This document shows positions 4,884 to 35,121 of a stretch of DNA of 64,000 nt, in pieces. Position 1 is the first letter of the stretch; each line of letters starts with the position of its first letter. Source of the DNA: Gammaproteobacteria bacterium (lineage in GTDB: Bacteria; Pseudomonadota; Gammaproteobacteria; Natronospirales; DASSBR01); the NCBI GenBank assembly GCA_035708085.1, contig DASSTE010000055.1:1975-65974 (forward strand). Direction: 5' to 3'. A program made the translations under genes and the position numbers. The notes beneath the pieces are model-generated. The model searched no databases, was not told where the DNA came from, and worked only from the letters and a program-made list of their open reading frames with translations.

Positions 4884-4896
4884 GCCAGCGCCCTCC

Positions 4897-7314: not shown

Positions 7315-7327
7315 GCGTTTTCTCCCT

Positions 7328-9778: not shown

Positions 9779-9789
9779 CGTTGTTCCTC

Positions 9790-12225: not shown

Positions 12226-12232
12226 AATTCTT

Positions 12233-14677: not shown

Positions 14678-14688
14678 CTCCTACCCCT

Positions 14689-17151
14689 TTACTGCTCCAT
14701 CATGGCTATGGCCGGGTCGAGCCTTGCCGCGCGACGGGCAGGCAGCCAGCAAGCGAGCAGCGTGATCGCCGCCAAAACGATGACGGTGCCAATGAGCGTG
14801 ATGGGATCGTAGGGCGCAATGCCGAACAGCCGCGACGACAGGACGAAGCCGAATATCACCGCGAGACCCAGCCCGGTAATCAGCCCGATGCCGAGCAGTT
14901 TCAGGCCGTCCTTTATTATCAGCCACAGCAAATTTTCGGGTAGCGCGCCCAAGGCAAGTCGAATGCCGCACTCCGCCCGCCTCTGCCCGACCGCGTAGCT
15001 CATTACGCCGTACACGCCGACTACCGCCAGCGCCAGCGCGATGCCGCCGAAGGCAAGCAGCAGGAGCACGACCATCTGCTTGTTGCTCAGGCTGCCCGCA
15101 ACGACCTGGCGCATGGTCTTTATGTTGTACAGCGCGGCCACGGGGTTAATCTTTTGGACTGTCTGCCGCAACGTCTTGATCAGCATGTCCGGCGGAATTG
15201 AGGTGCGGACAAACAAGCGCGTACGGGTAATGGCCATACGCGCAACATTCTCGTAAACCTGATAGGTCGGATTGGTTTTATCCAGGCCGCGGACTTTGAT
15301 CGGCGCCGCTACGCCCACAATGCGCAGCCACTCCTCCTTCTTATGCAGAAAGCGGTAATGAGCAATTCTTTTGCCGATGGCATGGCCATTGAAGTATTTG
15401 TCGGCGAAGTTCCTGCCGACGACGGCGGTAGGCAGACCAGTAGCGGTATCGCTTGTGAAGCCATGCCCCTTCAACAAAGGAATGCCGAGAGTCTTGAAGT
15501 ACTCTGACGTTACCGGATTGACAATCGCTTTCGGCGGCGGTCCATTTCCTCGTGGATGACCTTGTATGTCCCAGCCATCAATCCATAAGCCGGTAAGCGG
15601 CACCCAGGCACCGACGGCGGCGTACTCTACACTCGGCAGCGCCCGGACATGACGCAGCAGGTCGACCCGAAAGGCGTTCATCGAATGCTTGAGCTGCTCG
15701 CGGTGTTCAGGCGTGTCTGAAAGATTGCTGGCGGAGACTGCCTGAGGCGGTACGAACACCCGCGCCGTCAGCATGTTGTTGATATTGAAACCCGGATCGA
15801 CATGCTCCACGTTCACGAAGCTGTGCAGAAGCAAGCCGGCGCTGGCCAGCAGGGCGGTCGCAAGTGCCAGTTCGCCGGCTACCAATGCCCCGCGTACGCG
15901 TCGAGAGCCGCGACTGCCGGATGCTGTGCGGCCACCCTCCTGAAGCACATTTTGAAGGTCTGTTTTTGCCAGATGAAAAATCGGCAAGACGCTGACCAAC
16001 AGCCCGACGCCGCACACGACACAAAGCGCGAACAGGCCAACCCGCCAGCCCATGTCTATGCTTGCATTCCCAGCCTGTGACGAGGCAAGACGGATAAGGC
16101 GCAAGCATAGCCAACCGATGCCAATGCCCGCGAGTCCGCCTGGCACGGCAAGGCAGAACGCTTCAACGACAAGTTGACGTGCAAGCATGGCACGGCTGGC
16201 GCCGAGCGCGCTGCGCATCGCCATTTCGTGGCCGCGCCCCAGGATGCGCGCCAGCAGCAAGCTTGCGACGTTGATGCAGGCAATCAGAAGAACCAGTAGT
16301 ACCGCCGCTTGCAGCAGGAGCAGCGTCAGCGCCTTGCTGTCAATGTGTCTGTCAGCGAGCGGCTGAGTGTCGAGGCGGTAGCCGCTGTGCTTCAGCCTAG
16401 CCGGCTCAATCATGCTGCGAATACGCGTTGCGGCTGCCTCTATTTGCGGCTTTAATTCGGCCCGTGTCGCGTGCGGCGCGAGGCGCCCGATCAACTGGTA
16501 TTCCATCGCCATCGGGTGAGCCTTCAGTTCCGCCGGCTTGATCGTCAGAGGTGCCCAGTACCCGATGTCGCTGCTCGGAAACTCGAATCCCGGCGGCATC
16601 ACTGCGCGTATGCGGTAGATATCCTCATTCAACTTGATCGCACGCCCGATGATATTCGGGTCGCCGCCAAATTTGCTTTGCCACAAGTGATAGCTGATGA
16701 CGACTACGCTGCCCTGGCCGGGCCGGTCATTCGCCATAGTGAACGTGCGCCCGAGCAGCGGTTTGACGCCCAGAGTTTTGAACAGGGATCCCGTCGCCTT
16801 GACCCCGGAAATGACATTCGCCCGCCCGTCGGTGCGCAAGTTTGCGGACGTGGTCGAAAATGCCGCGACGCTCGAAAAGGCGTTAACGTGATCCCGGAGG
16901 TCATCATAGAGGGGAAGAGAGCCCCACATGTCCATGTTTCCGCCGAACTTCGGCATTTGGGTGTAAATATTGGTCAGTTGCTCGCTGTGTGGATACGGCA
17001 GCGGCTTCAACAGGTAATCGTTGAGCACGCTGAATACGGCCGTGTTCGCACCGATGCCGAGCGCGAGTGTCAGGATTGCGGCGACGGCGAAGCCGGGTTT
17101 GGTGGCCAGTTGTCGCAGTCCGAAACGCAGGTCATTCAGAAAGCCATTCAT
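14689..17151 (-). CDS. ADOP-type duplicated MacB/FtsX ABC permease, paralog 3
   Basis: 820 aa ORF with the same N-terminal, central and C-terminal FtsX motifs. Its periplasmic domains are divergent. Confidence 0.93.
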   Translation of the reverse strand: MNGFLNDLRFGLRQLATKPGFAVAAILTLALGIGANTAVFSVLNDYLLKPLPYPHSEQLTNIYTQMPKFGGNMDMWGSLPLYDDLRDHVNAFSSVAAFSTTSANLRTDGRANVISGVKATGSLFKTLGVKPLLGRTFTMANDRPGQGSVVVISYHLWQSKFGGDPNIIGRAIKLNEDIYRIRAVMPPGFEFPSSDIGYWAPLTIKPAELKAHPMAMEYQLIGRLAPHATRAELKPQIEAAATRIRSMIEPARLKHSGYRLDTQPLADRHIDSKALTLLLLQAAVLLVLLIACINVASLLLARILGRGHEMAMRSALGASRAMLARQLVVEAFCLAVPGGLAGIGIGWLCLRLIRLASSQAGNASIDMGWRVGLFALCVVCGVGLLVSVLPIFHLAKTDLQNVLQEGGRTASGSRGSRRVRGALVAGELALATALLASAGLLLHSFVNVEHVDPGFNINNMLTARVFVPPQAVSASNLSDTPEHREQLKHSMNAFRVDLLRHVRALPSVEYAAVGAWVPLTGLWIDGWDIQGHPRGNGPPPKAIVNPVTSEYFKTLGIPLLKGHGFTSDTATGLPTAVVGRNFADKYFNGHAIGKRIAHYRFLHKKEEWLRIVGVAAPIKVRGLDKTNPTYQVYENVARMAITRTRLFVRTSIPPDMLIKTLRQTVQKINPVAALYNIKTMRQVVAGSLSNKQMVVLLLLAFGGIALALAVVGVYGVMSYAVGQRRAECGIRLALGALPENLLWLIIKDGLKLLGIGLITGLGLAVIFGFVLSSRLFGIAPYDPITLIGTVIVLAAITLLACWLPARRAARLDPAIAMMEQ

Positions 17152-17163
17152 GCCCTACCCCCT

Positions 17164-19617
17164 CTACTGCTCCATCATCGCTATGGCTGGGTCGAGCTTT
17201 GCCGCGCGTCGCGCCGGCAGATAACACGCGGCCAGCGTGATGAAGCACAGCACGATGGCACTGCCAATCAGCGTCAGCGGATCAAACGGTACAACCCCGA
17301 ACAACTGCGACGAAATCAGGAAGCCGCATAACACGGCGAGGCCAAGGCCGAGAACAAGGCCGACCGCAAGCAGCTTCAAACCATCCTTCAATATCAACCA
17401 TTGCAAATCGCCCGGCAGCGCGCCAAACGCCAAACGAACGCCGCATTCGGCGCGCCGCTGTCCCACGGCGTAACTCATCACGGCATACACGCCGACAATC
17501 GCAAGCGCCAACGCAATCCCACCAAACGCGAGCAGCAAAGTCATCGTTGTCTGGTTATCGTTCAGCGAATCCAACAATTGCGCGTGCATGGTGTGGATGT
17601 CGGCAACGGCGACATTCGGCGCTATCGCGGCCAGCAGGTTTTTTACCGGCTTGATGAGCGCAGCTGGTGGCAGCTTGGTGTGGATGACAAGATACATATC
17701 GGGCGTCACACTGTATTTGCCGATGTCGATGTAAACGGCGGCCGACAATTTGGGCTGCGACAATCTCGTGTATTTGACCGGCGGCACAACGCCGACAATG
17801 GTGTAGATCTGTTTTGCGCCATAGTCGATCTTTTGCCCGATCGGGTTCACACCGCGAAAATACTTTTTGACCACGCGGGCATCGACGATCGCATGCATCT
17901 TGCCCGCATCGCGTTCATCGAAGCGTCGCCCGCGTAAAATCGGGATGCCGAGCGTTTTGAAATAGCCTGGGCTGATAAAATCCTGAATAGCCCCCGGCGA
18001 CTCGCCCGAAGGCTGCGGTGGCCGGCCGGGGATGGTGAAGCCGTTGAAAATTGCCATATTGCTCATCGGCACGGAAGCGGTAATCCCGGATTGCCAAACG
18101 CCAGGCAGTCCATCCACGCGCTTCACCACGTGGTTGTAAAACTGGCTCATCGCTTTGTCGTCCAAATAATCCTTGGGCGACAACAGAAGCTGCGCGATCA
18201 ATACATGGTCCTTGCGAAAACCGGGATCGACGGCTTCAAGATTCATAAAGCTGTGCAGCACCAGGCCGGCGATCGCAAGCAAGCCGGTCGCGAGCGCCAG
18301 TTCGGCAATAACGAGCGTATTGCGGACGCGCTTTGCGCCTCGCCCCGCGGTGCTGCGGCTACCCTCCTGCAAAGCAATTTGCAGATCAGTTTTGGCGAGT
18401 TGGCAGATCGGTAAAACGCTAATCAAGGCCGCGGTGACCAGCGCCGCGCCAAGTGCAAATAACCCGACGCGCCAGTCAAGCGCGATGTCGAATATGCTGC
18501 TACCAACGCCGAGAGCTGAGCCCGCCAGAAAGTGCATGCCGAACCAGGCGAGGCCGAAGCCGATCAAGCCACCGGGCACTGTCAGGCACAACGCCTCGCC
18601 AAGCAGTTGTCGCGCCAGCGCGCCCCGGGTCGCGCCAAGCGTGCTGCGGATCGCGATTTCATGGCCGCGCCCGAGAATGCGCGACAGCAACAGGTTGGCA
18701 ACGTTGACGCAGGTGATCAGCAAAATCAGTAACACCGCGCCTTCCAGCAGCCATAAGGTCGCTGGACGGTTGCCGAGCAATCCCTGCCGGTACGATTGGG
18801 CGCGCATCGAAAACCCCATGCTCTTTAGCAGTTTCCGGTTGTACATGAGGTTGCCCACTTTGATGGGGAAATTATTGTCGGTCCATGTCTGAACCGCTTG
18901 CCGTACTTGCCGTTGCGCCGTCGCGATGCTGACGCCGGGTTTGAGCCAGCCAATAAATCGAGTATCGAGTGCCGATAGAAACCGCGTCGGATCGAAAGTT
19001 TTGGGAACGATCGGTTGCGGTAACCATATCGAGATGTCGTGGTCCGGGAACGCGAAGCCGCGCGGCATTACGCCGACGATTCGATAATCCTCGCTTTCAA
19101 TATTGACGGCCTTGCCGATGATGTTGGGGTCTGCGCCGAACGTAGTGCGCCAGAGCGAATAACTGATGACTACAACCTGGTCGCTGCCAGGCTTCATGTC
19201 GGCTTTGGTGAAGGTATGCCCGAGCATGGGCTGCACGCCGAGAACGCGAAACAGCGACGCCGTAGTGATCAGCCCGCCGACGCGCTGCGCGCGTCTGGCG
19301 GCGTTCAGATTGAAATAGTCGCGATGGTAAACGGCACCAGCGGCAAAGGCCTTGGTGTGCCTTTGAACGATTTGATACATCGGCATCGAGATACCGGAAT
19401 CACCGCTGCTAAATTTTGGAAGCTCCGTGTTAAGTTGCGCCAACCGGCCGGCGTGCGGGTACGGTAGCGGCTTGAACAGATAGCCGCTCAGAACGCTGAA
19501 CACCGCCGTATTGGCGCCGATGCCAAGCGCCAGCGTGAGGATGGCCGCGGCGGCAAATCCAGGCTTGGCTGTAAGTTGATGAATGCCAAAACGCAGGTCT
19601 GTGAGAAAGCCGTTCAT
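17164..19617 (-). CDS. ADOP-type duplicated MacB/FtsX ABC permease, paralog 2 (subfamily A)
   Basis: 817 aa ORF. By eye it is closest to paralog 6 along its whole length. Confidence 0.93.
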   Translation of the reverse strand: MNGFLTDLRFGIHQLTAKPGFAAAAILTLALGIGANTAVFSVLSGYLFKPLPYPHAGRLAQLNTELPKFSSGDSGISMPMYQIVQRHTKAFAAGAVYHRDYFNLNAARRAQRVGGLITTASLFRVLGVQPMLGHTFTKADMKPGSDQVVVISYSLWRTTFGADPNIIGKAVNIESEDYRIVGVMPRGFAFPDHDISIWLPQPIVPKTFDPTRFLSALDTRFIGWLKPGVSIATAQRQVRQAVQTWTDNNFPIKVGNLMYNRKLLKSMGFSMRAQSYRQGLLGNRPATLWLLEGAVLLILLITCVNVANLLLSRILGRGHEIAIRSTLGATRGALARQLLGEALCLTVPGGLIGFGLAWFGMHFLAGSALGVGSSIFDIALDWRVGLFALGAALVTAALISVLPICQLAKTDLQIALQEGSRSTAGRGAKRVRNTLVIAELALATGLLAIAGLVLHSFMNLEAVDPGFRKDHVLIAQLLLSPKDYLDDKAMSQFYNHVVKRVDGLPGVWQSGITASVPMSNMAIFNGFTIPGRPPQPSGESPGAIQDFISPGYFKTLGIPILRGRRFDERDAGKMHAIVDARVVKKYFRGVNPIGQKIDYGAKQIYTIVGVVPPVKYTRLSQPKLSAAVYIDIGKYSVTPDMYLVIHTKLPPAALIKPVKNLLAAIAPNVAVADIHTMHAQLLDSLNDNQTTMTLLLAFGGIALALAIVGVYAVMSYAVGQRRAECGVRLAFGALPGDLQWLILKDGLKLLAVGLVLGLGLAVLCGFLISSQLFGVVPFDPLTLIGSAIVLCFITLAACYLPARRAAKLDPAIAMMEQ

Positions 19618-19664
19618 GTTGTATCTCTAGTCCCCTTAACGTCCGGGAGCGGGAAATGGAGAAG

Positions 19665-22106
19665 TCACTGCTCCACGATCGCTACGGCCGGGTCGAGCTT
19701 CGCCGCACGACGTGCCGGTAGATAACACGCGAGCAGCGTGATGACAGCCATGACGATGGCGGTACCGGCCAACGTCAGCGGGTCGAACGGCGCGACACTG
19801 AACAGGCGCGCCGAGAGCAGGTACCCCATCACGACAGCGAGGGCCAGGCCCACCACCAGGCCGACCGCGAGCAGCTTGAGCCCGTCCTTCAACACCAGCC
19901 ACAGCAGGTCCTCGGGCAGCGCGCCCAGGGCCAGGCGCACTCCGCACTCGGTGGTACGCTGACCGACGGCGTAGCTCATGACGCCGTAAACACCGATGAT
20001 GGCGAGGGCCAGCGCGATTGCGCCAAATGCGAGGATCAGAATCATCAGCGACTGGCGACCTTGCAAGTTGTGCGCGATCAGGTCCTGCACCGATTCAAAG
20101 TCATTGGCGGTGGCGCCGGGAGCAACCTGCGCTACTGTGGCCTTGATCGCCTTGACCTGCGAATAAGGCGGCAGCGTGGTCTGGACCACGAGCGCAAGCG
20201 CCCCTCCCCGCTGCGCAAGCATCGCCAGCCATTGGGCCGACTGGCTCACCGGGAAATAGGCGGTGCCCATGTTGTTCGCGCGACTCAGTTGCTCTGCGCG
20301 CATCGACGAAACAACACCGACGATCGTGGTTTTCGTATCCCCCATTTTCAGGGTGCGCCCGACAGGATTTTTGCCGGGATACGCCTGTTGTGCCATGACG
20401 TCATCGATCACCATGACAGGCTGGCTGTGCGCAGTATCCTGCGCATTGAACAGCCGCCCGCGCAGCAGCCGCAAGCCAAGCGTATTGAAATACCCGGTAT
20501 CGGTAATATTCCACCAGGCGAATGGCGCATACTTCGGCCGCCCCGGGACTTCATAGCTGCCGTTGACCCCGTAGCTGAGCGGCAACTGCAACGCCACGCC
20601 CGCGCTTTCCACCCCCGGCACGGCATGGATTTGATCGAGCAATTGATGGTAAAAACTCGCCGCGGCCTCGCCCGACACCTGCGGCGGCGGCGCAACTTTG
20701 GCCGTCAAGACATGGCTTGTGCGAAAACCGGGATTGATGCCGCTTAACTCAATGAAACTGTGCATCAGCAGCCCGGCGCCGGCGAGAAGCGCGGCCGCCA
20801 GAGCCATTTCAGCCACAGCCAGAACATTGCGAACGTGCCTGGCGCCGCGCCCACCGCCGATGCTGCGGCCGCCTTCCTGCAAGATGCCTTGCAGGTTGCC
20901 CCGACTGAAATGTCTGATGGGCAAGAGGCTGATTACAACCGCCACCAGGAGTACAGCCCCAAACGTAAATACACCGACGCGCCAATCGGGGTTTATGGTG
21001 AAAATCTGCGATCCTCCGAGGCCCAGATTTTGTACGAAGCCGAGCGCCCACCAGCCGAGTGCCATACCGGCGATGCCGCCGGGCACCGCCAGGCAAAGGC
21101 CTTCGATCAACAGTTGGCGTGCAAGGACTCCGCGAGTCGCGCCCAGCACGCTGCGCATGGCGAGTTCATGCGTGCGGCCGAGAATGCGTGCGAGCAAGAG
21201 GTTGGCGACGTTGACGCAGGCGATCAAAAGAACCATCAGTACGGCCGCCTGCAGCAAGAACAGGGTCGAGTCTTCGTCGCCGACGAGCTTGTCGCGATAC
21301 GGACGTGCGTTCCAGTCAAGGCCGACCTGGTCCTGCGACTGTTTCATTTCCGAACTGGTATCGATAACCTGATCGAGAACCGCCGCTAGTCGTGCATTCG
21401 CCTGCTGCAGGCTCACGCCCGGCTTCAGTCGCGCAATCACCGGCGAATTCTGGTTGCGCCGGAATGCTTCCGATTTCATCTTCGCGGTCATCACGTACGG
21501 CGTCCACAGCCGCGCCAAACCGAAACCGATATCGACATTCATGGTTCGTGGCATCACACCGATGATCGTGTACGGCTCCCCATTCAACTTGATGGACTGG
21601 CCGATCACGCTCCGGTCGGCGCCGAAGGTCTGTTGCCAGAAACTGTAGCTCAACACGACAACATGACCGCGCCCGGGCTGCTGCGCGGTACTGTCAAAGG
21701 TGCGCCCAAGCAGCGGTTTGACGCCGAGCACATCGAATAACGACGCCGTCGCCATCGACGCATGTACCCGCTGCGTCTGACCCCCCGCCTGCACGGCATA
21801 ACTTCGCCACGTCCACGCGCCGATCGACGAGAACACGTCATGAGTGTTTTGTTTGATGCTCAGATAGTTCGGCAGCGATAACGGCGCATGCTGAATCCCC
21901 GGCTTGATCTGATGCTCGCTGACGTCTACCAGTTGCTCACTGTGCGGGTACGGCAGCGGTTTCAGCAGATAGCCGTTGAGCACACTGAACACGGCTGTAT
22001 TGGCGCCAATGCCGAGCGCCAGCGTCAGGATCGCCGCAGCCGCGAAGCCGGGCTTCGATGCCAGCTGGCGCAGGCTGAACCGCAGGTCCGTTAACAGGCC
22101 GTTCAT
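19665..22106 (-). CDS. ADOP-type duplicated MacB/FtsX ABC permease, paralog 1 (first after the ATPase)
   Basis: 813 aa ORF (MNGLLTDLRFSLRQLASKPGF...). Its N-terminal periplasmic region most resembles paralog 7. It starts 18 nt after the ATPase stop. Confidence 0.93.
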   Translation of the reverse strand: MNGLLTDLRFSLRQLASKPGFAAAAILTLALGIGANTAVFSVLNGYLLKPLPYPHSEQLVDVSEHQIKPGIQHAPLSLPNYLSIKQNTHDVFSSIGAWTWRSYAVQAGGQTQRVHASMATASLFDVLGVKPLLGRTFDSTAQQPGRGHVVVLSYSFWQQTFGADRSVIGQSIKLNGEPYTIIGVMPRTMNVDIGFGLARLWTPYVMTAKMKSEAFRRNQNSPVIARLKPGVSLQQANARLAAVLDQVIDTSSEMKQSQDQVGLDWNARPYRDKLVGDEDSTLFLLQAAVLMVLLIACVNVANLLLARILGRTHELAMRSVLGATRGVLARQLLIEGLCLAVPGGIAGMALGWWALGFVQNLGLGGSQIFTINPDWRVGVFTFGAVLLVAVVISLLPIRHFSRGNLQGILQEGGRSIGGGRGARHVRNVLAVAEMALAAALLAGAGLLMHSFIELSGINPGFRTSHVLTAKVAPPPQVSGEAAASFYHQLLDQIHAVPGVESAGVALQLPLSYGVNGSYEVPGRPKYAPFAWWNITDTGYFNTLGLRLLRGRLFNAQDTAHSQPVMVIDDVMAQQAYPGKNPVGRTLKMGDTKTTIVGVVSSMRAEQLSRANNMGTAYFPVSQSAQWLAMLAQRGGALALVVQTTLPPYSQVKAIKATVAQVAPGATANDFESVQDLIAHNLQGRQSLMILILAFGAIALALAIIGVYGVMSYAVGQRTTECGVRLALGALPEDLLWLVLKDGLKLLAVGLVVGLALAVVMGYLLSARLFSVAPFDPLTLAGTAIVMAVITLLACYLPARRAAKLDPAVAIVEQ

Positions 22107-22124: not shown

Positions 22125-22862
22125 TTATTCGGCAACTGGCGAGGCTGCCGGAGCCGGATTGGCGATGGTGATGTCCTCGTCGACGATCTGGCCGTCGAAG
22201 AGCTGGATCGTGCGTGCGGCGCGGGTCGCGTAACGCGGATCATGCGTGACCATGCAAATCGTTGCGCCGGCATGGTGCAACTCGTCCATCAGTTCCATTA
22301 CCGCCTCGCCACTGGCCGAATCCAGATTACCGGTCGGCTCGTCGGCGAGCAGAATCGAGGGCTCGCCAACCAGTGCGCGAGCCACGGCAACGCGCTGCTG
22401 CTGACCGCCGGAAAGCTGCGACGGGTAATGGTTGACGCGGTGCGCCATGCCGACCCGTTCCAGCACCGTATTCACCTTTTCGCGCCGTTCTTCCTTGCTC
22501 GTGCCGCCGCGATACACCAGCGGCAGCTCGACGTTCTCATACACGCTTAAGTCGCCGATCAGGTTGAACGTCTGGAAAATGAAACCGATCTCGCGATTAC
22601 GGATGTGCGCCCGGTCGGCATTGTCGAGTTCCTCAACCGCCGTGCCGTTCAACTGATAAGTGCCGCTGGTCGGTGTCGACAGCAGGCCGAGGATCGACAT
22701 CAGCGAGGTCTTGCCGCAGCCGGAGGGGCCGAGGATGGCGACGTATTCGCCACGGTCGATGTCGAAGCTGATGCCGTTCAGCGCGTACGTCTCGACTTCG
22801 TCGGTGGCGTAGATCTTTTTCAGGTTGTCGATTCTGATCAGCTGCATTTCATCGTCTTTCAT
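22125..22862 (-). CDS. ABC transporter ATP-binding protein, MacB/LolD/FtsE-type stand-alone NBD
   Basis: Walker A GPSGCGKTS, signature LSGGQQQR, Walker B ILLADEPTGNLD, H-loop VTHD. I prefer ATG 22862 (MKDDEMQLIRI...) because GGAG lies 6 nt upstream. The ORF-track start at 22889 would overlap the adaptor gene by 8 nt. Confidence 0.92.
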   Translation of the reverse strand: MKDDEMQLIRIDNLKKIYATDEVETYALNGISFDIDRGEYVAILGPSGCGKTSLMSILGLLSTPTSGTYQLNGTAVEELDNADRAHIRNREIGFIFQTFNLIGDLSVYENVELPLVYRGGTSKEERREKVNTVLERVGMAHRVNHYPSQLSGGQQQRVAVARALVGEPSILLADEPTGNLDSASGEAVMELMDELHHAGATICMVTHDPRYATRAARTIQLFDGQIVDEDITIANPAPAASPVAE

Positions 22863-22881
22863 CGTTTGCTCCGGTTTGCGA

Positions 22882-24153
22882 TTACCCATGACTCAACTCG
22901 ATTCGGTCGTACTGGCTCCATTGGGAGGTATCCGACACAATGACCTTGTCGCCCGGCTTGAGCCCGGCGACGACCTGTACGGCGTTGGCCGACGTGCGGC
23001 CCAGTTCAACTTTGGTGCGCGTCGCCAGATCGCTGCCCGGCACCAGCCGGAACACGCTCAGCGTGTCGCCCGCCTGCACGCCTGCCGGGCGATCCATGTA
23101 GAGCACGTTATCGAGCTTCGCGAGGACGATTTCGCCCTGCACGTCCAAGCCGCTGCGCAGATCCTTCGGCGGATCGCCGACCGGCGCGACATCGATTTCG
23201 ACGGTGCCGTTCTCCACCGTCGGATTGACGCGAATGACCTTGCCGACGAAAGTGCTGTTGGCGCCGCCGAACGCGGTCAGCATCACGTGCTGGCCGATCG
23301 CGATTGCGCCCGCCTGCGATTCGGCGACCTGCAGCTTAGCCATCAGGTTGTTCTGCTGCGCGATGCGCGCGATGTCCGCGCCAATCGCCAGGTGTTGGCC
23401 GTCCTGCACCGCGACTTGCGTCACGATGCCGGTCATGCCGGCTTTCACCTGCAGGTTGTCGAGGTCGCGCTCACGCGCGGCGAGGTCGGCCTTGAGCTGC
23501 GCGACTTCCGCCTGCTTCGCGTTGACCTGCGCATCGAGGCTCGCCTTGAACTGCTGAATACGCTGCTTGTCGGATGCCACCTTCTGCTTGAGTTGTTCCG
23601 CCTTCGCGACAGTCTGCCGGTAATCCAATTCGGAGATAATGTGTTCCTTGACGACCTGCGCCTGAGCCTTTTTCTGGAACTGCGCGACCTGGTAGTTGCT
23701 CTCGTCCTGCGCCAGCGTGTTTTCGAGATCGAGCAACTGGCTTTGCAGTTGCGCCTTCAGCGATGCCAGATCCGCCTTGCCCGTTGCTACCTTCGTCTTC
23801 GCCTGCGCCACCGCCTGCACGACCTCCGGGTTGTGCATGACGACCAGAACGCTGTCCGGCTTGACATGATCGCCCGGCCGCACCAGGCGCTTCTCGACCA
23901 CCCCGGCGGCGGGCGCAGTGACCCATTGAATAACGCGCGGCGTCAAAACACCCGACGCCTGCACGGTAATCGTCAGCGGACCCTGCTTGACGGTGCTGAC
24001 CAGCACCGACGAGCGCGGCACGCTGGGCGCGGCAGGCTTAAGAAATGCGACCAGCACGATCGCGGCAATAACGACTGCGGCGGCGGAACCGATCAGCGCG
24101 AAGCGCTTGCGCTGACGTTTGCGGCGATGTTCGGCGGAACGGGGCTTGTCCAT
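22882..24153 (-). CDS. HlyD/MacA-family periplasmic adaptor (membrane fusion protein)
   Basis: N-terminal basic stretch plus TM (RKRFALIGSAAAVVIAAIVLVAF), then a long coiled-coil (QAKTKVATGKADLASLKAQLQSQLLDLEN...) and beta-barrel-like C-terminal domains. The ORF-track start (TTG 24189) is replaced by ATG 24153 (MDKPRSAEH...), which has AGAGGA 5 nt upstream and lies downstream of the sigma-54 promoter. Confidence 0.9.
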   Translation of the reverse strand: MDKPRSAEHRRKRQRKRFALIGSAAAVVIAAIVLVAFLKPAAPSVPRSSVLVSTVKQGPLTITVQASGVLTPRVIQWVTAPAAGVVEKRLVRPGDHVKPDSVLVVMHNPEVVQAVAQAKTKVATGKADLASLKAQLQSQLLDLENTLAQDESNYQVAQFQKKAQAQVVKEHIISELDYRQTVAKAEQLKQKVASDKQRIQQFKASLDAQVNAKQAEVAQLKADLAARERDLDNLQVKAGMTGIVTQVAVQDGQHLAIGADIARIAQQNNLMAKLQVAESQAGAIAIGQHVMLTAFGGANSTFVGKVIRVNPTVENGTVEIDVAPVGDPPKDLRSGLDVQGEIVLAKLDNVLYMDRPAGVQAGDTLSVFRLVPGSDLATRTKVELGRTSANAVQVVAGLKPGDKVIVSDTSQWSQYDRIELSHG

Positions 24154-24189
24154 GAAATCCTCTGGTTGCGGGTTATACCGTATACGCAA

Positions 24190-24204
24190 GCAAAAACCAT
24201 GCCA
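24190..24204 (-). promoter_or_regulatory. sigma-54 (-24/-12) promoter P1 for the adaptor-ATPase-permease operon
   Basis: The minus strand reads TGGCAT-GGTTT-TTGC, with the invariant GG and GC at the canonical spacing. The predicted transcription start is near 24179, about 26 nt upstream of ATG 24153. An NtrC-type activator gene is adjacent. Confidence 0.75.
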
Positions 24205-24270
24205 AACTGACGTTGTCGTTATCTTTCCAGTGGTTACGCATTTATTTTAAGGTTGATGATAAGATGCGAA

Positions 24271-24307
24271 TGTTCGATTATGGGACGGCGCGTCCCATAA
24301 TCGAACA
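24271..24307. promoter_or_regulatory. UAS1: 17-N3-17 perfect palindrome, candidate enhancer-binding-protein site for P1
   Basis: TGTTCGATTATGGGACG-CGC-CGTCCCATAATCGAACA on the minus strand. It lies 66 bp upstream of the TGGCAT of P1. It matches UAS2 at 32 of 37 positions. Confidence 0.7.
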
Positions 24308-24330
24308 CATGAAGCCATTCCCGATACCTC

Positions 24331-24561
24331 TCACTCATAGCGGACTCGCCCATACGCCAGAAGCGAACTCAACTCGCCGCAACGGCGGGGCATTTTTCTA
24401 CGGCCGTCAGCACACGCAACGTTTTCGCGCCGATCCGTCGCCAAAACCACCACGTCAGGCAACTCGCAGCGTCGAGCTGCAAGCTCATTGCTGCAGGCGG
24501 CGAGCCCTTTTCTACGCGAGCCCCCAGTTTCGAGCGTAGGCACACGCAATAATCCGTTCAT
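24331..24561 (-). CDS. candidate small basic Cys-containing protein (76 aa), or the non-coding body of a sigma-54-dependent short transcript
   Basis: ATG at 24561 with GGAGA 7 nt upstream, about 56 nt downstream of the predicted P2 start. The peptide MNGLLRVPTLETGGSRRKGL... has 4 Cys, 13 Arg, no TM segment and no signal peptide. By my count 30 of 76 codons end in A/T (AGA x2, CGA x2, TTA), which is atypical for this genome, so coding status is uncertain. Confidence 0.3.
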   Translation of the reverse strand: MNGLLRVPTLETGGSRRKGLAACSNELAARRCELPDVVVLATDRRENVACADGRRKMPRRCGELSSLLAYGRVRYE

Positions 24562-24628
24562 GTCACTATCTCCGAATTACCGTCCAATACTGATCCACTT
24601 CAACAGCGGACCTCCTGCATTTACTCAA

Positions 24629-24643
24629 GCAAATACTGTGCCA
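24629..24643 (-). promoter_or_regulatory. sigma-54 (-24/-12) promoter P2, a duplicate of P1
   Basis: The minus strand reads TGGCAC-AGTAT-TTGC, a consensus -24/-12. From TGGCA onward, 19 of 24 positions match P1, including the downstream TTGxGTAxA. Confidence 0.75.
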
Positions 24644-24707
24644 ATACTGCTGTTGGATGTATTTCAAGCACTTAGCGTTTAGTTGCCATGCGCAAGGCGG
24701 TAACATT

Positions 24708-24744
24708 TGTTCGATTCCGGGACGTCGCGTCCCGTAATCGAAGA
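24708..24744. promoter_or_regulatory. UAS2: 17-N3-17 near-perfect palindrome, candidate enhancer-binding-protein site for P2
   Basis: TCTTCGATTACGGGACG-CGA-CGTCCCGGAATCGAACA on the minus strand. It lies 64 bp upstream of the TGGCAC of P2. It sits 40-80 bp upstream of the divergent activator gene start. Confidence 0.7.
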
Positions 24745-24785
24745 TCGTGTACCATGCGGCAGCATTGAAAAGCGCACATTTCGCC

Positions 24786-26153
24786 ATGCCCCAGCCCAAC
24801 ATTCTCATTGCCGACGACAAGCAGCACATTCTCGACAGCCTGCGACTGCTGCTGAAGAGCGAGAACTTGCGCCCGCTGTGCGTACAGTCGCCCGCCGCGG
24901 CGCTGGAAGCGCTGCGCACGCAGGTTTTTGATGCCGCCTTGATCGACCTCAACTACACCCGGGACACCACCTCCGGCGCAGAGGGGCTGGAACTGCTACA
25001 GGCCCTGCATCGTCTGGACGACAGCCTGCCGGTCATCGTCATGACGGCCTGGGGCAGCGTGGAACTTGCCGTCGAGGCCATGCGCCAGGGCGCGGCGGAT
25101 TTCATCGAGAAGCCATGGGACGACGCGCGTCTGCTCAGCGTGCTGCGCAACCAGATTGCGCTGGCGCACGCGCTCAAGCAGGGCCGCCGACTGAACGCGG
25201 AAAATGCCTTACTGCGCGAACGCCGGCCGATCCAATTCATCGCCGAGTCGCCCGCGATGCGGGAAATCATGCGGCTTGCCGAGCAGGTGGCGTCCGCCGA
25301 TGCGGCCGTGCTGATCACCGGGGAGAATGGCACAGGCAAGGGAGTGCTGGCGCGGCACATTCATGATCTTTCCGCGCGCGCCGGGCAACCCTTCATTCGC
25401 GTCAACCTCGGCGGGCTGGCGGAGTCGCTGTTCGAAAGCGAGTTGTTCGGCCACGTCAAAGGTGCGTTTACCGATGCCAAGTCCGACCGCATGGGCCGCT
25501 TTGAACTGGCCGACGGCGGAACGCTGTTTCTGGATGAAATCGGCAACCTGACGATGGAACAGCAGGCGCGGCTGTTGCATGTGCTGGAGGAAGGCGAATT
25601 CGAACGGGTCGGCGCTTCGCGGCCGATCCGGGTCGACGTGCGTATCGTGTCAGCAACGAACGTCGATCTGCAAAGAGCGATCAGCTCCGGGCATTTCCGC
25701 AAGGATTTGTATTACCGGCTCAACACGGTGCGCATCGAATTGCCGCCGTTGCGCGACCGCCCACAGGACATCGAGCCGTTGACCATGCAGTTCCTGGCAC
25801 ACAATGCGCAACGCTACGGCAAAACCATATCCGGTCTCGCCCCCGAGGCCGCCGCGGCTCTCGCCCGCTATCCCTGGCCCGGCAACGTCCGCGAACTGCA
25901 GCACGTGATGGAGCGCGCAGTACTGCTTGCCCAGGGCGATGTTCTGACGGCGCAGGATCTGCGGCTGGAGACCGGCGACGCGATCGGCGATACCGCCGGC
26001 ATGGAATACATGACGCTCGCCGACGCCGAGCAGCATTTGATTCGCGCGGCGCTGCATCGCTGCGGCGGCAGCGCCAACGAAGCGGCTGCGGTGCTCGGAG
26101 TAAGTCGAAGCGCTCTGTATCGAAGGTTGCAGCGGTATGGCATCGGCGATTAG
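24786..26153 (+). CDS. sigma-54-dependent response regulator (NtrC family: REC + AAA+ + Fis-type HTH)
   Basis: REC domain (NILIADDKQ..., AALIDLNY, VIVMTAWGS, FIEKP). AAA+ domain (GENGTGKGVLARHIH, ESELFGHVKGAFTDA, which is the GAFTGA-type loop, FLDEIG). C-terminal HTH (AAAVLGVSRSALYRRLQRYGI). The start could instead be GTG 24747. Neither start has a strong SD. Confidence 0.92.
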   Translation: MPQPNILIADDKQHILDSLRLLLKSENLRPLCVQSPAAALEALRTQVFDAALIDLNYTRDTTSGAEGLELLQALHRLDDSLPVIVMTAWGSVELAVEAMRQGAADFIEKPWDDARLLSVLRNQIALAHALKQGRRLNAENALLRERRPIQFIAESPAMREIMRLAEQVASADAAVLITGENGTGKGVLARHIHDLSARAGQPFIRVNLGGLAESLFESELFGHVKGAFTDAKSDRMGRFELADGGTLFLDEIGNLTMEQQARLLHVLEEGEFERVGASRPIRVDVRIVSATNVDLQRAISSGHFRKDLYYRLNTVRIELPPLRDRPQDIEPLTMQFLAHNAQRYGKTISGLAPEAAAALARYPWPGNVRELQHVMERAVLLAQGDVLTAQDLRLETGDAIGDTAGMEYMTLADAEQHLIRAALHRCGGSANEAAAVLGVSRSALYRRLQRYGIGD

Positions 26154-27501
26154 CCACCGTGCCGGAACGCGGAAACGCGGGAGTCGATCCCGGCGGCCGC
26201 GTTCGTTCGAGACGCGTCTCGCGCTGTGGATCCTGGTCGCCGCCCTGCCCGCTCTGCTCGGCTTCGCAATTCTGTTATGGCGCGTCCGTGCCCCGCCACC
26301 GGCGTGGATCGCCTTCGCATTATCGCTCTGCTGGCCGCTGGCGGTTGCACTTCGCGGGCGCCACCGCTTCACTTACGCTTTGCGCACGCTCACCAACCTG
26401 ATGGAATCGCTCAAGGAAGGCAGCTATACGCTGCGCGGTACGCACGCGCACAAGCCGGGTGTGCTGGGCGAGGTGACCGACCACCTCAACGCGCTCGCGG
26501 CGAGCCTGCAAGGCGAGCGCGTCGCATCGCAGGAAGCCGGGGCGCTGCTGAGCAAGGTGGTGGATGAAGTCGATATTGCTGTCCTCACGTTCGATGACCT
26601 GGAACGGCTGACATTCATTAACCCGGCCGGCGAGCATCTGCTCGGCGAAGATCGCAAAACACTGATGTACCGCCCGGCGGCGGCGCTGCAACTAAGCTCG
26701 CTGCTGCGTGGGCCGCAGGCCGCGACGGTGCAGCGTAGTTTTCCCGGCGGTGCCGGGCCCTGGGATGTACGCCGGCGAATCTTCCGGCAGGAAGGCCATC
26801 GCCGTCACCTGCTGGTCATGACAGACGTCAGCCGCGCGCTGCGTGAGGAAGAACGGCATGCATGGCATCAACTGATTCGCGTGCTGGGCCACGAGATCAA
26901 CAATTCTCTGGCGCCGATTCGCAGCACCGCCTCGACATTGGCACGTCTGGCACAAAAGGAACCCCTGCCGGCAGACTGGCGTGCCGACATGGCCGAGGGT
27001 CTGGATCTGGTGGGCAAGCGGGCCGAATCGCTGCGCCGCTTCATGCGCGCCTACACGATGCTTGCACGGCTGCCACCGCCAAAGAAGCGGCGAGTGCGGC
27101 TCGCACCCCTGGTCGCGCGTGTGGCAGCGTTCGATCCGCGTCGGCGCGCGTCGGTGTCGTCGGGTCGACCGTTGACAATCGAGGCGGATGCCGACCAGAT
27201 CGAACAGGCGCTGATCAACCTCGTCAAGAACGCGATCGATGCGACCGAGGAAGGCGGCGGCGAGGTGACGATTCAGTGGCAGGCGAAAGACGGTGAGGCG
27301 GTGATCGAGGTGATCGACGACGGCCCCGGTCTCGCCGGCAGTCAGAACCTGTTCGTGCCGTTCTTCACAACCAAGCCCGGCGGTAGCGGGATCGGTCTGG
27401 CGCTGGGGCGGCAGATCGCGGAAGCGCATGGTGGCACGCTCACGCTCGAAAACCGCCGCGATGCATACGGCTGCGTCGCGCGGCTGTCGCTGCCGCTTTA
27501 G
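26137..27501 (+). CDS. sensor histidine kinase (two N-terminal TM segments, linker/PAS-like region, HisKA, HATPase_c)
   Basis: H-box LIRVLGHEINNSLAPIRS, N-box LINLVKNAIDA, G-boxes DDGPGL and GGSGIGLALGRQI. It overlaps the regulator gene by 17 nt. Its stop lies 1 nt from the stop of the convergent lipoprotein gene. Confidence 0.9.
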   Translation: MASAISHRAGTRKRGSRSRRPRSFETRLALWILVAALPALLGFAILLWRVRAPPPAWIAFALSLCWPLAVALRGRHRFTYALRTLTNLMESLKEGSYTLRGTHAHKPGVLGEVTDHLNALAASLQGERVASQEAGALLSKVVDEVDIAVLTFDDLERLTFINPAGEHLLGEDRKTLMYRPAAALQLSSLLRGPQAATVQRSFPGGAGPWDVRRRIFRQEGHRRHLLVMTDVSRALREEERHAWHQLIRVLGHEINNSLAPIRSTASTLARLAQKEPLPADWRADMAEGLDLVGKRAESLRRFMRAYTMLARLPPPKKRRVRLAPLVARVAAFDPRRRASVSSGRPLTIEADADQIEQALINLVKNAIDATEEGGGEVTIQWQAKDGEAVIEVIDDGPGLAGSQNLFVPFFTTKPGGSGIGLALGRQIAEAHGGTLTLENRRDAYGCVARLSLPL

Positions 27502-30864: not shown

Positions 30865-31881
30865 GTGCGCATTATCAAATGGGCTGTCGCCATCGCCGTT
30901 GTCATTGCCATCGCCGTCGGCGGCTATTTCTACTGGGAGCATTCGCAGCGCTACCCCAGCACCGACGATGCCTACATCGGCGCTCATGTCATCCATCCCG
31001 CGCCTGAAGTCTCCGGCGAGGTCGAAATCGTCAATGTTCGCAATGCGGAGCATGTCAACCAGGGCGACCTGCTGTTCAAACTCGACCTGACGCCGTTCAA
31101 GCTGGCGGTCAAGCAGGCCGAGGCGCAACTCGAACAGGCGCGCGAAATGAACGCCGGGCTGAAGGCGGCGGTCGCCGCCGCACGCGCCGAAGTCGCCAAT
31201 CGCGAAGCACAGTTGGACAAAGCCAAGCTCGATGCCAAGCGTACTCACAAGCTGGTCAAGAAAGGCTACCGCACCAAGGCCCAGGGCACCGACGTGCAGG
31301 CGGAGTTGAAGAGTGCGAAGGCCGCACTCGCGCTTGCCAAGGCCAAGCTCAACCAGGCGGTGCAGCAGCTCGGCCAGAAGGGCGAAGGCAACTATCGCGT
31401 GGTGGAGGCTAAGGCAGAGCTGGGCCTGCGCAAGTGGCAGCTCGCGCACGCTGCGGTGTATGCGCCGTGCAGCGGCGAAGTGACCCAGGTGCAGCTGCGT
31501 CCCGGCGATACTGTCCAGCAGGGCCGCTCGCCGTTCGTGCTGGTGTGCGACAACAAGGTCTGGGTCGATGCCAATTACAAGGAAACCGACATTGCCGGCA
31601 TTCATCCCGGCGACAAGGCGACCATCAGCGTCGACATGTATCCGAACAAGACGTTCCACGGCCGCGTGATCGGGATCAACCCGGCCGCGGGTACCGCGTT
31701 CTCGCTGTTGCCGCCCGAAAACGCGACGGGCAACTGGGTCAAGGTGACGCAGCGCGTGCCGGTGCGCGTGCTGATTACGGATACCGATCCGGCACACCCG
31801 CTGCGCGTCGGCACCAGTGCCGAGGTGACGATCGACATCCAGTCGGGCCCCGGCAACCACAAGGTCGCCGACAACCGCTAA
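30865..31881 (+). CDS. HlyD-family secretion protein (EmrA-like MFS pump adaptor)
   Basis: GTG start with AGGAG SD. N-terminal TM segment, the STDDAYI motif typical of EmrA-type adaptors, and a coiled-coil region. Confidence 0.88.
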   Translation: MRIIKWAVAIAVVIAIAVGGYFYWEHSQRYPSTDDAYIGAHVIHPAPEVSGEVEIVNVRNAEHVNQGDLLFKLDLTPFKLAVKQAEAQLEQAREMNAGLKAAVAAARAEVANREAQLDKAKLDAKRTHKLVKKGYRTKAQGTDVQAELKSAKAALALAKAKLNQAVQQLGQKGEGNYRVVEAKAELGLRKWQLAHAAVYAPCSGEVTQVQLRPGDTVQQGRSPFVLVCDNKVWVDANYKETDIAGIHPGDKATISVDMYPNKTFHGRVIGINPAAGTAFSLLPPENATGNWVKVTQRVPVRVLITDTDPAHPLRVGTSAEVTIDIQSGPGNHKVADNR

Positions 31882-31901
31882 CGCGCTGGTAGCTCCAAAC
31901 A

Positions 31902-33434
31902 ATGCCAGCGCAAAAGCTCGGCTCGCGCTTCCTGATTACCGTCGCGGTGATGTCCGCGACGGTAATGCAGGTACTCGACACCACGATCGTCAACGTCGCC
32001 CTGCCCCACATGCAGGGCGAACTGGGGGCGAACCCGGACCAGATCACCTGGGTGCTGACCAGTTACCTGGTCGCGTCCGGCATCTTCATGCCGCTGACCG
32101 GCTACTTCACCGACCGGCTCGGCCAGAAGCGCTACCTGACGATCAGCATCACCGGCTTCGTCATCGCCTCGATGCTGTGCGGCATCTCGCAGACGCTGCC
32201 GGAAATCGTGCTCGCGCGCCTGTTGCAGGGCATGTTCGGCGCCGGCCTGTCGCCCATCTCGCAGTCGATCCTGATCAACACGTATCCGCGCGAAAGCCGC
32301 GGCCGCGCGATGGCGATCTGGGGCCTCGGCATTATGGTGGGGCCGATTCTCGGGCCGACGCTCGGCGGCTGGCTCACCGAAGTGTTCAACTGGCGCTGGA
32401 CTTTTTATATCAATGTGCCGGTCAGCATCCTGTCGCTCGCGCTGACATGGCTCGCGGTGCCGGAAACCGAGCGCAAGAAACGCACCACCGACTGGACCGG
32501 CCTCGTCCTGATCGCCATGGGCATCGGGTGCCTGCAATACGTGCTCGACCGCGGCAACCAGAAAAACTGGTTCGATTCCGGCGTGATCACCATTCTGGTG
32601 ATCCTGTCGGTGGTCGGCTTTGTCGGCTTTATCTACCACAGCCTTCGTAACAAGCGACAGGCGCTGTTCGACCTGCGCATTTTCAAGGACCGCAATTTCG
32701 CCACTGCCTCGCTGCTGATCACGGCGCTGGGGCTGGCTATGTACGGCACCCTCGTTCTGCAGCCGCTGCTGCTCGAAGGTCTGCTTGGCTACCCGGTGCT
32801 GACGACCGGTATCGTGATGGCGCCGCGCGGCATTGCCAGCGCCATCAGCATGTTCATGGTCGGCAAGCTTATTACCCGTTTCGAGCCGCGCATCATGGTG
32901 GGCGTCGGTATCCTGCTATCCACGCTCGGCACCTGGTTCATGACGCAGTACAACCTGCAGATCAATCTCTTCTGGGTGATCTTTCCGATCGTGATCCAGG
33001 GCTTCGGCATGGGGCTGATCTTCGTACCGCTCGCGACCGTCGCCTACTCGACGCTGCCCAATGAAAGTTCCGCCGAGGCCGCCGGCATGTTCAGCCTGGT
33101 GCGTACGATCGGCTCGTCGGTCGGCATCGCGATCGTCGTGACGCTCCTGTCACGCCATACGCAGATCGCCTGGAACCAGTTGGGCGGCCATATCACCGCC
33201 AGCAACCCGGCAGTGTGGCATTACCTTAGTCGGCTCGGTCTGTCGCCCGACTCGCAGGCGGCGGCCGGGATCTTCGCGAAACTGGTCGGGAGTCAGGCAC
33301 GTATCACCGGTTTCCTGGACGCCTTCCTGGTCGTCTTTGTAAGCTTTATTTGCATGATTCCGCTGGTCGCGATCATGCGCCGTGTGAACCGGACGTCGGG
33401 CGGCGGCCATGCCGCCGCGAGCGCGATGGAATAG
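31902..33434 (+). CDS. DHA2-family MFS drug:H+ antiporter (EmrB/QacA-like, 14-TM type)
   Basis: 510 aa. LDTTIVNVALPHMQGELG and GYFTDRLGQKR motifs. Many hydrophobic segments. Confidence 0.9.
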   Translation: MPAQKLGSRFLITVAVMSATVMQVLDTTIVNVALPHMQGELGANPDQITWVLTSYLVASGIFMPLTGYFTDRLGQKRYLTISITGFVIASMLCGISQTLPEIVLARLLQGMFGAGLSPISQSILINTYPRESRGRAMAIWGLGIMVGPILGPTLGGWLTEVFNWRWTFYINVPVSILSLALTWLAVPETERKKRTTDWTGLVLIAMGIGCLQYVLDRGNQKNWFDSGVITILVILSVVGFVGFIYHSLRNKRQALFDLRIFKDRNFATASLLITALGLAMYGTLVLQPLLLEGLLGYPVLTTGIVMAPRGIASAISMFMVGKLITRFEPRIMVGVGILLSTLGTWFMTQYNLQINLFWVIFPIVIQGFGMGLIFVPLATVAYSTLPNESSAEAAGMFSLVRTIGSSVGIAIVVTLLSRHTQIAWNQLGGHITASNPAVWHYLSRLGLSPDSQAAAGIFAKLVGSQARITGFLDAFLVVFVSFICMIPLVAIMRRVNRTSGGGHAAASAME

Positions 33435-33442
33435 GAGCTTTT

Positions 33443-33901
33443 ATGTATTACAGAATCCTGTTGGCCTACGACGGTTCGCTCGGCGGACGCCGGGCACTAC
33501 GCGAAGGTGCCAACATCGCCATCAAGTTTCACGCGGTCACGCATCTGCTGGCGGTGATGAAGCCCGCGTTCGGCGCGCAAATCGGTCATGGCTTCGACAT
33601 CGGACACATCGCGGATACGGAACTAAATCACTTTCAGACGACTCTAGATGAAGGCGTGGCAATGTTGAAAGACTGGGGTCTCGATGCGACCGGCCATCTG
33701 GTTCGCGGCGACCCGGTCACCGAGATTGCGAGGCTCGCCACCGAAGTCGAGGCGGACCTGGTTGTCGTCGGCCACGGGGGGCACGCTGCACTCTCCCGCT
33801 GGTGGCGTACGCCGCTCAGCGCATCGCTGCTCGACCGGCTGGATTGCAGCCTGCTGATCGCGATGCACGGCGAGGCGGCGGACGAAGTCGTCGATACATA
33901 A
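33443..33901 (+). CDS. universal stress protein (UspA family)
   Basis: MYYRILLAYDGS... and ...DLVVVGHGGH... motifs. ATG 33443 is preceded by AGGAG. The ORF-track start at 33350 overlaps the MFS gene. Confidence 0.85.
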   Translation: MYYRILLAYDGSLGGRRALREGANIAIKFHAVTHLLAVMKPAFGAQIGHGFDIGHIADTELNHFQTTLDEGVAMLKDWGLDATGHLVRGDPVTEIARLATEVEADLVVVGHGGHAALSRWWRTPLSASLLDRLDCSLLIAMHGEAADEVVDT

Positions 33902-33917
33902 ATCGCCTTTCCGGAAG

Positions 33918-35087: not shown

Positions 35088-35121
35088 TCGCCACTCGCAG
35101 CGATATCATCGGGGGCCGCCG

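Follow-up and report, generated by a model that had tools for sequence, protein, structure and literature searches.

Among the closest described counterparts of the gene analyzed here are PmrD (85 aa), MgrB (47 aa) and SafA (65 aa), small connector or feedback proteins of Enterobacteria that are induced by two-component systems. We analyzed a 76-codon open reading frame (ORF) at positions 24561-24331 on the minus strand of the window, that is, the whole 64-kb stretch of DNA, which is a contig of an uncultured soil gammaproteobacterium. On this strand, the order is: a palindromic upstream activator site (UAS2), a sigma-54 promoter (P2), the sequence GGAGA, the ATG at 24561 with the small ORF, a second palindrome (UAS1), a second sigma-54 promoter (P1), the ATG of an adaptor gene at 24153, an ATP-binding cassette (ABC) ATPase gene and eight genes for ADOP-type permeases. 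A two-component system with an NtrC-type sigma-54 activator is encoded divergently. An earlier note on this DNA had offered three readings for the ORF: a small basic protein, an exported peptide related to the pump, or a non-coding RNA. We consider the ORF to be probably coding. To the fuller proposal, i.e. that a small basic protein of the cytoplasm is genuinely translated from this lineage-restricted gene, which has its own sigma-54 module, is induced by the neighbouring regulator and is transcribed with read-through into the pump operon, we give a little better than an even chance.

Like PmrD, MgrB and SafA, the ORF appears to be a small, two-component-switched and fast-evolving gene of a narrow lineage, located beside or within its regulon; PmrD is also basic and cytoplasmic. 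Unlike in these cases, where sigma-70 promoters are used, the promoter here is of the sigma-54 type; there is no similarity in sequence or fold, and MgrB and SafA are membrane proteins. AcrZ, the 49-aa partner of AcrAB-TolC, is a small protein co-regulated with an efflux pump, as is proposed here, but it is a single transmembrane helix that binds its pump in the membrane, whereas the product of our ORF has no hydrophobic segment and the pump is an ADOP/MacB-type ABC system and not a resistance-nodulation-division (RND) transporter. As in the genes for Qrr1-4, the GlmY/GlmZ-type small RNAs (sRNAs) and NrsZ, a short unit has a separate -24/-12 promoter, preceded by an activator site; it differs from them in its conserved ribosome-binding site and ATG and its codon-periodic substitutions, and in that no terminator, Rfam match or covariation was found.

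Small reading frames in front of exporter genes are known as well. In the darobactin locus (darA-darBCD-darE), the gene for the precursor peptide directly precedes the genes for a MacB-type exporter, and here the small ORF stands right before adaptor, ATPase and FtsX-type permease genes, with DarD as the best-scoring named relative of the ATPase. The scores are far below the cut-offs, however, the window contains no radical S-adenosylmethionine (radical-SAM) maturase, and the product does not resemble DarA; moreover, the ORF has a promoter of its own, with a second enhancer-promoter pair in front of the operon. Leader ORFs precede some ABC efflux genes, e.g. bmrB in front of bmrCD in Bacillus subtilis. 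The ORF resembles the leader peptides of bmrB-bmrCD, ermCL and PA5471.1 in being short, in its position 5' of an efflux operon and in its conserved N-terminal peptide; in contrast to them, no terminator/antiterminator or Shine-Dalgarno-sequestering structure was found, an enhancer and a promoter intervene, and the position of the stop codon varies.

Coding signature of the small reading frame and its relatives

The ORF and its ribosome-binding site are placed as follows:

24331-24561, minus strand: probable small protein-coding gene, 76-codon ORF (76 aa; stop included in the coordinates), unannotated, with homologues and a coding signature
24569-24573, minus strand: Shine-Dalgarno sequence GGAGA, 7 nt before the ATG at 24561

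The window is GC-rich and crowded with spurious ORFs of 50-150 aa; therefore, the presence of a small ORF alone proves nothing. The adaptor protein (HET8552335.1) and the regulator (HET8552336.1) have consecutive accessions, so there is no annotated gene between them. The ORF is unannotated in the source record, was called in just three protein clusters of the public collections searched, with different boundaries, and its exact product is absent from a collection of 15 billion proteins, which bears out the earlier suggestion of an unannotated component of the system. The predicted protein contains 13 Arg and 4 Cys, has an isoelectric point of 9.8 and possesses neither a hydrophobic segment nor a signal peptide (maximum Kyte-Doolittle 19-residue average, 0.47). 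Our recount agreed with the earlier one in P2, GGAGA, the 76-aa ORF, its Cys and Arg residues, the 30 A/T-ending codons and the UAS1 palindrome.

Relatives were gathered by a genome scan with the adaptor, from contigs encoding adaptor homologues, and by an exhaustive phmmer search with the 76-aa sequence. They represent ten distinct lineages with adaptor identities of 77-98%, all of them uncultured and known from soil or metagenome assemblies. Their common layout is a regulator gene, UAS2, P2, GGAG, an ORF starting with ATGAACGG, UAS1, P1 and the adaptor gene; nine lineages keep P2 and most keep UAS2. In all ten, GGAG is found 7-9 nt before the ATGAACG start, while the sequence of the spacer varies. 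The ORFs encode 76, 76, 76, 77, 77, 77, 55, 82, 66 and 179 aa. About 37 N-terminal residues can be aligned in nine lineages (MNG[FLI][FL]..P[ST]L ... R.RL.RCR ... ARRCE[LP]P, with MNGFFRxPSL among the retained motifs), followed by a variable tail, and a C-terminal motif, CGELSSLLxxGR[IV]R, is common to the window group and lineage L030. The phmmer search gave the homologues P0123 (E 2.5e-22) and P0124 (E 9.4e-8), of which P0124 is a full-length homologue of 77 aa with 50% identity that is likewise sited between regulator and adaptor genes.

Two further phmmer matches, P0125 and P0126, were rejected as chance hits to repeat proteins, one of them a translated CRISPR-like array. P0126 consists of 230 aa of rotating repeats (KHPRRCGELS / GNTPADAGNF / ETPPQMRGTF), as in a translated CRISPR-type array, and matches the PRRCGELS of the ORF by chance, which is a caution for hits to short motifs. 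A regulator gene is not found next to the adaptor homologues of 43-46% identity (L023-L025), and a homologue of 57% identity is located at a contig end; from the former, we conclude that only the clade with at least 77% adaptor identity has the arrangement. When metagenomes were scanned with the adaptor alignment, the only relatives returned were 20-23% identical and stood in unrelated contexts.

The pattern of substitutions points to translation of this frame. Calculated by the Nei-Gojobori method (NG86), the ratio of non-synonymous to synonymous substitution rates (dN/dS) in the ORF frame was 0.39 for the window and L001 (Fisher p=0.0013), 0.44 for the window and L030 (p=0.003) and 0.47 for L003 and L013 (p=0.012), whereas the other two sense frames gave 0.95-1.5. 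The antisense frame with coinciding wobble positions also had a low ratio but holds stop codons. The three comparisons are independent, and Fisher's method gave a combined p of about 5e-4 in favour of a dN/dS below 1. The ratio was about 0.4 both in codons 1-40 and from codon 41 to the end, and the differences per codon position amounted to 17/14/30 and 16/16/21. Among the window, L001, L002 and L030, the sole indel inside the ORF body is one of 6 nt, whereas outside it, in the same four lineages, indels of 1, 3-4 and 7 nt occur in the 56-nt 5' untranslated region (5'UTR) and large ones beyond the stop codon. The probability that the frame stays open under random placement of substitutions was 0.27 x 0.22 x 0.35 along three non-overlapping lineage paths, i.e. 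about 0.02. Two protein motifs persist while their codons change: RRCELP is identical in the window and L004 despite synonymous changes in five of its six codons, and CGELSSLL is identical in the window and L030 with three synonymous and no non-synonymous changes. The neutral divergence, taken as the synonymous divergence (dS) of the adaptor gene, is 0.7-0.85 substitutions per site. The conserved start and ribosome-binding site, the frame-specific dN/dS, the in-frame indel and the retained motifs across ten lineages favour the small basic protein among the three earlier readings.

A number of observations weigh against a conventional gene. The GC content at the first, second and third codon positions of the ORF is flat (0.64/0.55/0.61, compared with about 0.70/0.40/0.80-0.82 in its neighbours) and thus not typical of the genome, and 30 of the 76 codons (39%) end in A or T (among them AGA x2, CGA x2 and TTA x1) vs 18-25% in five neighbouring genes; with both features, the ORF looks like non-coding or very young sequence. 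The mean AlphaFold2 confidence (predicted local distance difference test, pLDDT) was low, at 40 with the single sequence and 47 with a four-row alignment. Pfam, NCBIfam and PDB sequence searches with the small protein were empty or at chance level, and word-indexed searches of 5.8 billion proteins, with the ORF and then with a nine-member family profile, found only the protein of the L016 type and nothing outside the clade. Constraint is weak: the small protein is 62% identical between the window and L001, where the adaptor is 98% identical, and the dN of the ORF reaches 0.4-0.65 of the adaptor dS. None of the Cys residues is invariant (F replaces C32 in L002, and W replaces C23 in L030), and the C-terminal halves cannot be aligned between the deeper groups. 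We dropped the length of the ORF as evidence for coding, since beyond the approximately 37 conserved codons it is not longer than geometric expectation (our own estimate, p about 0.2). In L004 (5200-6003), UAS2 is missing, P2 is degenerate (TCGGCATGGAATTTTCC) and the ORF is reduced to 55 codons; ribosome-binding site and ATG are retained, as are the 37 conserved codons at the N-terminal end. In L016, only the first 10 or so codons are homologous (MNEFFCTPSL), followed by an unrelated frame of 179 aa. The product is probably a young or weakly constrained, disordered, basic small protein.

This 179-aa product (P0122, L016/L017, 2577-3116) has a signal-peptide-like segment, LRLSIAAMLTGALLIGAANAAAAP, with a maximum hydropathy of 1.82. 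The L016/L017 lineage has an adaptor of 79% identity and an intergenic region of 1150 nt, and P0122 was predicted by gene callers on several contigs. In L014 (2700-3503), the small ORF has a strongly structured 5'UTR of about 199 nt, and another frame within the ORF contains a second GACATGAACGG start, pointing to a partial internal duplication.

On the opposite strand, an ORF at 24213-24539 (plus strand) was rejected because its second codon positions coincide with the most variable sites. Terminator-like hairpins with T-runs are present in antisense orientation (plus strand) at 24373-24389 and 24488-24503; the region has three such sites (0.9 expected), which may either end antisense transcription or be due to chance.

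The duplicated enhancer-promoter module and its predicted transcript

The following elements surround the ORF:

24628-24643, minus strand: P2, sigma-54 -24/-12 promoter, TGGCAC-N5-TTGCT (TGGCACAGTATTTGCT), exact pattern match
24710-24742, no strand: UAS2, palindromic enhancer site TTCGATTCCGGGACG-TCG-CGTCCCGTAATCGAA, 89% identical to UAS1
24189-24204, minus strand: P1, sigma-54 promoter, TGGCAT-N5-TTGCT, with 35 nt between its end and the adaptor ATG (24153)
24271-24307, no strand: UAS1, enhancer for P1, perfect 17+17 palindrome with a 3-nt loop, contained in any P2 read-through RNA
24662-24674, plus strand: IHF-like site TTTCAAGCACTTA, one mismatch to WATCAANNNNTTR, between UAS2 and P2
24592-24612, minus strand: predicted 5'-terminal stem-loop of the P2 transcript (GGUCCGCU / AGUGGAUC), overlapping AGGAGG and the TTG mini-ORF

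UAS2-P2 and UAS1-P1 are two copies of one enhancer-promoter module. The palindrome occurs in exactly two copies in 64 kb (0 expected), the repeat spacings between the two modules are 437 and 439 nt, and the GG of P2 follows the centre of UAS2 after about 84 nt, matching the geometry of UAS1 and P1. The sigma-54 pattern has three matches in the window against 0.17 expected. P1 is kept in all ten lineages and P2 in nine (TGGCAC in seven, TGGCAT in L003 and L014), being lost along with UAS2 in L004. The distance of UAS2 from P2 is unchanged in the window, L001, L002, L030, L026 and L014, and the core of the palindrome has diverged in L003 and L013. The IHF-like site of the P2 module has a constant offset in seven of nine lineages and is exact in L003 and L013; at the matching offset in the UAS1-P1 module, such a site is exact in L001 and L002 and has one mismatch in L003, L013 and L026. 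The exact WATCAANNNNTTR is not present in the window, and we regard these putative IHF sites between enhancer and promoter as suggestive only.

The third exact sigma-54 match, TGGCACGGCAATTGCT (13665-13680, minus strand), falls within the permease gene 12233-14677 with no UAS palindrome close by; it may have arisen by chance or may be a sigma-54 site within a gene. No rpoN gene was found among the window ORFs scanned. The divergent activator gene has its start codon (24786) only 44 nt from the edge of UAS2, and a search of 24100-24850 detected no sigma-70-like promoter; therefore, the two-component operon may be autoregulated through UAS2 as well. The 3' end of the ORF (24335-24354, minus strand; TATGGGCGAGTCCGCTATGA) resembles a collapsed UAS palindrome (TATGGGACG...CGTCCCATAA) and may be a relic of the duplication that made the two modules.

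Given a C(-12) at 24629, transcription from P2 is predicted to start at about 24617. The start is followed by AGGAGG (24616-24611) and a TTG mini-ORF (24603-24577), both on the minus strand and at the positions given earlier; the mini-ORF is not conserved, its stretch being deleted in L003, L004 and L013. The stem-loop at the 5' end is kept in about five to six lineages (the window, L001, L002, L030 and L026 among them) and absent in L003 and L013. The 17-bp palindrome of UAS1, which had been placed 24 nt past the stop codon, is indeed there, with a gap of 23 nt; across lineages, the distance from stop codon to UAS1 ranges from overlapping to about 230 nt.

Since the palindrome is common to both modules, the neighbouring regulator should switch both on together; the NtrC-type response regulator would bind both palindromes and fire P2 and P1 at the same time. 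We found no terminator-like site on the minus strand after the ORF, and nothing in the sequence ends the P2 transcript before the adaptor gene. Therefore, this transcript most likely reads through into the pump operon, and the view that P2 drives only a short, separate transcript found no support. In our proposal, the P2 RNA would be translated into the small protein and run on through UAS1 and P1 into the adaptor-ATPase-permease operon, which would give two nested transcripts, the longer of them beginning with the small gene as its first cistron. The protein would be cytoplasmic, Arg-rich and probably largely disordered, evolving at about half the neutral rate, and our guess, by analogy with PmrD and its like, is that it may serve, made only on induction, as an intracellular accessory or feedback factor of the two-component system or of the pump.

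Weighing of other explanations

The strongest rival is a translated leader whose product is irrelevant, which we regard as unlikely, yet deserving serious attention. P2 would then be a second, upstream promoter of the operon, and the passage of ribosomes would matter, for instance to protect a leader of about 460 nt from Rho-dependent termination or to sense translation stress in the manner of antibiotic-responsive leader peptides, whereas the protein would have no function. This would accommodate the lack of a terminator between ORF and adaptor gene and the atypical codon composition, and also the fact that the ribosome-binding site and the ATG are best conserved, with codons 2-5 kept even as nucleotides (ATGAACGGATTTTT), while the tail varies in length and sequence. 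A functionless product is hard to reconcile with a similarly low dN/dS in both halves of the ORF and with RRCELP and CGELSSLL being kept via synonymous changes. Neither an alternative terminator/antiterminator pairing nor a structure masking a Shine-Dalgarno sequence was found, a complete promoter, P1, is located downstream of the ORF, and the variable distance from stop codon to UAS1 also argues against a leader. Less probable still, in our opinion, is that the ORF is incidental or decaying, i.e. either a spacer between the duplicated modules or what is left of an older gene (cf. L016), kept open by GC richness and free of selection. The codon and GC statistics, the very fast divergence of the amino acid sequence, the many spurious ORFs of the window, the absence of a fold and of a family, the truncation and promoter loss in L004 and the replaced body in L016 can all be read in this way. 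Against it stand the dN/dS below 1 in three comparisons and in this frame only, indels that preserve the frame, protein motifs conserved amid synonymous codon turnover, and the presence of GGAG and ATG in 10 of 10 lineages despite considerable neutral divergence.

It appears rather doubtful that the small protein is a dedicated partner of the ADOP array (signal, cargo precursor or specificity factor) with a 37-residue recognition leader and a hypervariable Cys/Arg-rich working tail. A related reading, compatible with this one, is that the gene may have originated de novo inside the duplicated module, with which the flat GC profile, the restriction to one clade and the dN/dS of about 0.4-0.5 would agree. 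Even less credit can be given to the idea that the product is exported and acts as cargo, signal or immunity partner for the ADOP/MacB-type pump, the conserved N-terminal part being its leader and the variable, Cys-bearing part its core. There are parallels for such a peptide, as heat-stable enterotoxin II is exported by MacAB-TolC and the darobactin precursor gene precedes a MacB-type exporter, and the gene is located immediately upstream of the pump operon, has the regulator in common with it and encodes a conserved N-terminal part and a variable C-terminal half. The ATPase has its best NCBIfam match with DarD and the adaptor its second-best with DarC, but at 249 bits (cut-off, 375) and 89 bits (cut-off, 450), respectively, both far below equivalog level, in searches that included the darobactin exporter models NF038007/NF038010. 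MacB-type pumps take their substrates from the periplasm, whereas in nine of ten lineages the product lacks both a signal peptide and a hydrophobic segment (maximum 19-residue hydropathy at most 0.47), the signal-peptide-like segment of L016 being the exception. Moreover, the Cys residues are not invariant, and no radical-SAM, YcaO, lanthipeptide or other maturase gene was found in the 64-kb window, so that the second of the earlier readings is not supported. The third, a sigma-54-dependent sRNA or a structured non-coding leader in which the ORF is a coincidence, is in our estimation very improbable. It could draw on the sigma-54 promoter of the unit, which recalls Qrr and GlmY-type sRNAs, on the 5' hairpin kept in several lineages, and on the 378-nt P2 transcript, which folds better than shuffled sequences (z = -4.0); the stretch with this good score includes, however, the perfect UAS1 palindrome, which would serve protein binding on DNA. 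In contrast, Rfam gave no match at the gathering threshold and chance hits only at a permissive one (E up to 10), the covariation term in the consensus fold of the four alignable lineages was unfavourable (+0.88, 3 of 72 pairs compensated), and there is no intrinsic terminator. The substitutions are codon-periodic, and the body of the region is not alignable as nucleotides in the deeper lineages, yet the start of the ORF and the protein motifs persist. The earlier note had named both amino acid sequence and RNA structure as what might be conserved at homologous loci; we found the former, with its synonymous bias, and not the latter.

Neighbouring genes and significance of the locus

The genes on both sides of the ORF are:

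22885-24153, minus strand: HlyD/MacA-like adaptor gene, with which the annotated pump operon begins
22128-22889, minus strand: ABC ATPase gene, after the adaptor gene
2478-22106, minus strand: eight tandem, paralogous ADOP permease genes of about 800 aa each, preceded by one ATPase and one adaptor gene
24786-26153, plus strand: divergent NtrC-type sigma-54 activator gene with Response_reg, Sigma54_activat and HTH_8 domains
26137-27501, plus strand: divergent histidine kinase gene, forming a two-component system with the activator

Three of the eight permeases were scanned, and the other five were assigned from their size and tandem position. The permeases 17167-19617 and 19668-22106 pass the TIGR03434 cut-off (812.6 and 800.7 bits vs 622.3), and the permease 2481-4883 has the MacB_PCD and FtsX domains that are duplicated in the ADOP type. 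In the relative L013, a single permease gene is followed by an unrelated HepT-like gene; the copy number of permeases thus varies widely within the clade. Two more efflux systems are encoded nearby on the plus strand (30865-38253), one consisting of an HlyD-type adaptor and a major facilitator superfamily pump (30865-33434), the other of an adaptor and an RND pump (33918-38253), making the region rich in export systems. Apart from these, the window contains housekeeping genes (gyrA, aroA, cmk, rpsA, pyrG and eno) and genes for signalling proteins.

The sigma-54 enhancer-dependent promoter, the two-component-induced small protein and the ADOP/MacB-type pump are all of known kinds. What is new is a protein family without detectable relatives, its placement between tandem copies of a module, and its link to an ADOP array of eight permeases. 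In the literature searched, we found nothing on the regulation of ADOP permeases or on sigma-54-controlled MacB-type systems with a small ORF, and no substrate or function described for ADOP-type MacB-like permeases.

The locus also illustrates how small genes that evolve fast and use atypical codons escape annotation pipelines. The gene is confined to a narrow clade of uncultured bacteria and, if it is young, would be a tidy case of a small gene settling in duplicated regulatory DNA. ADOP-type MacB-like permeases are abundant in soil bacteria, and here eight of them stand in tandem under one sigma-54 two-component switch. A conserved, probably co-induced small protein is a concrete and cheap target for testing the control or the cargo of this system, and, if it were indeed a partner of the ADOP array, it would be the first molecular handle on the function of this large transporter family.

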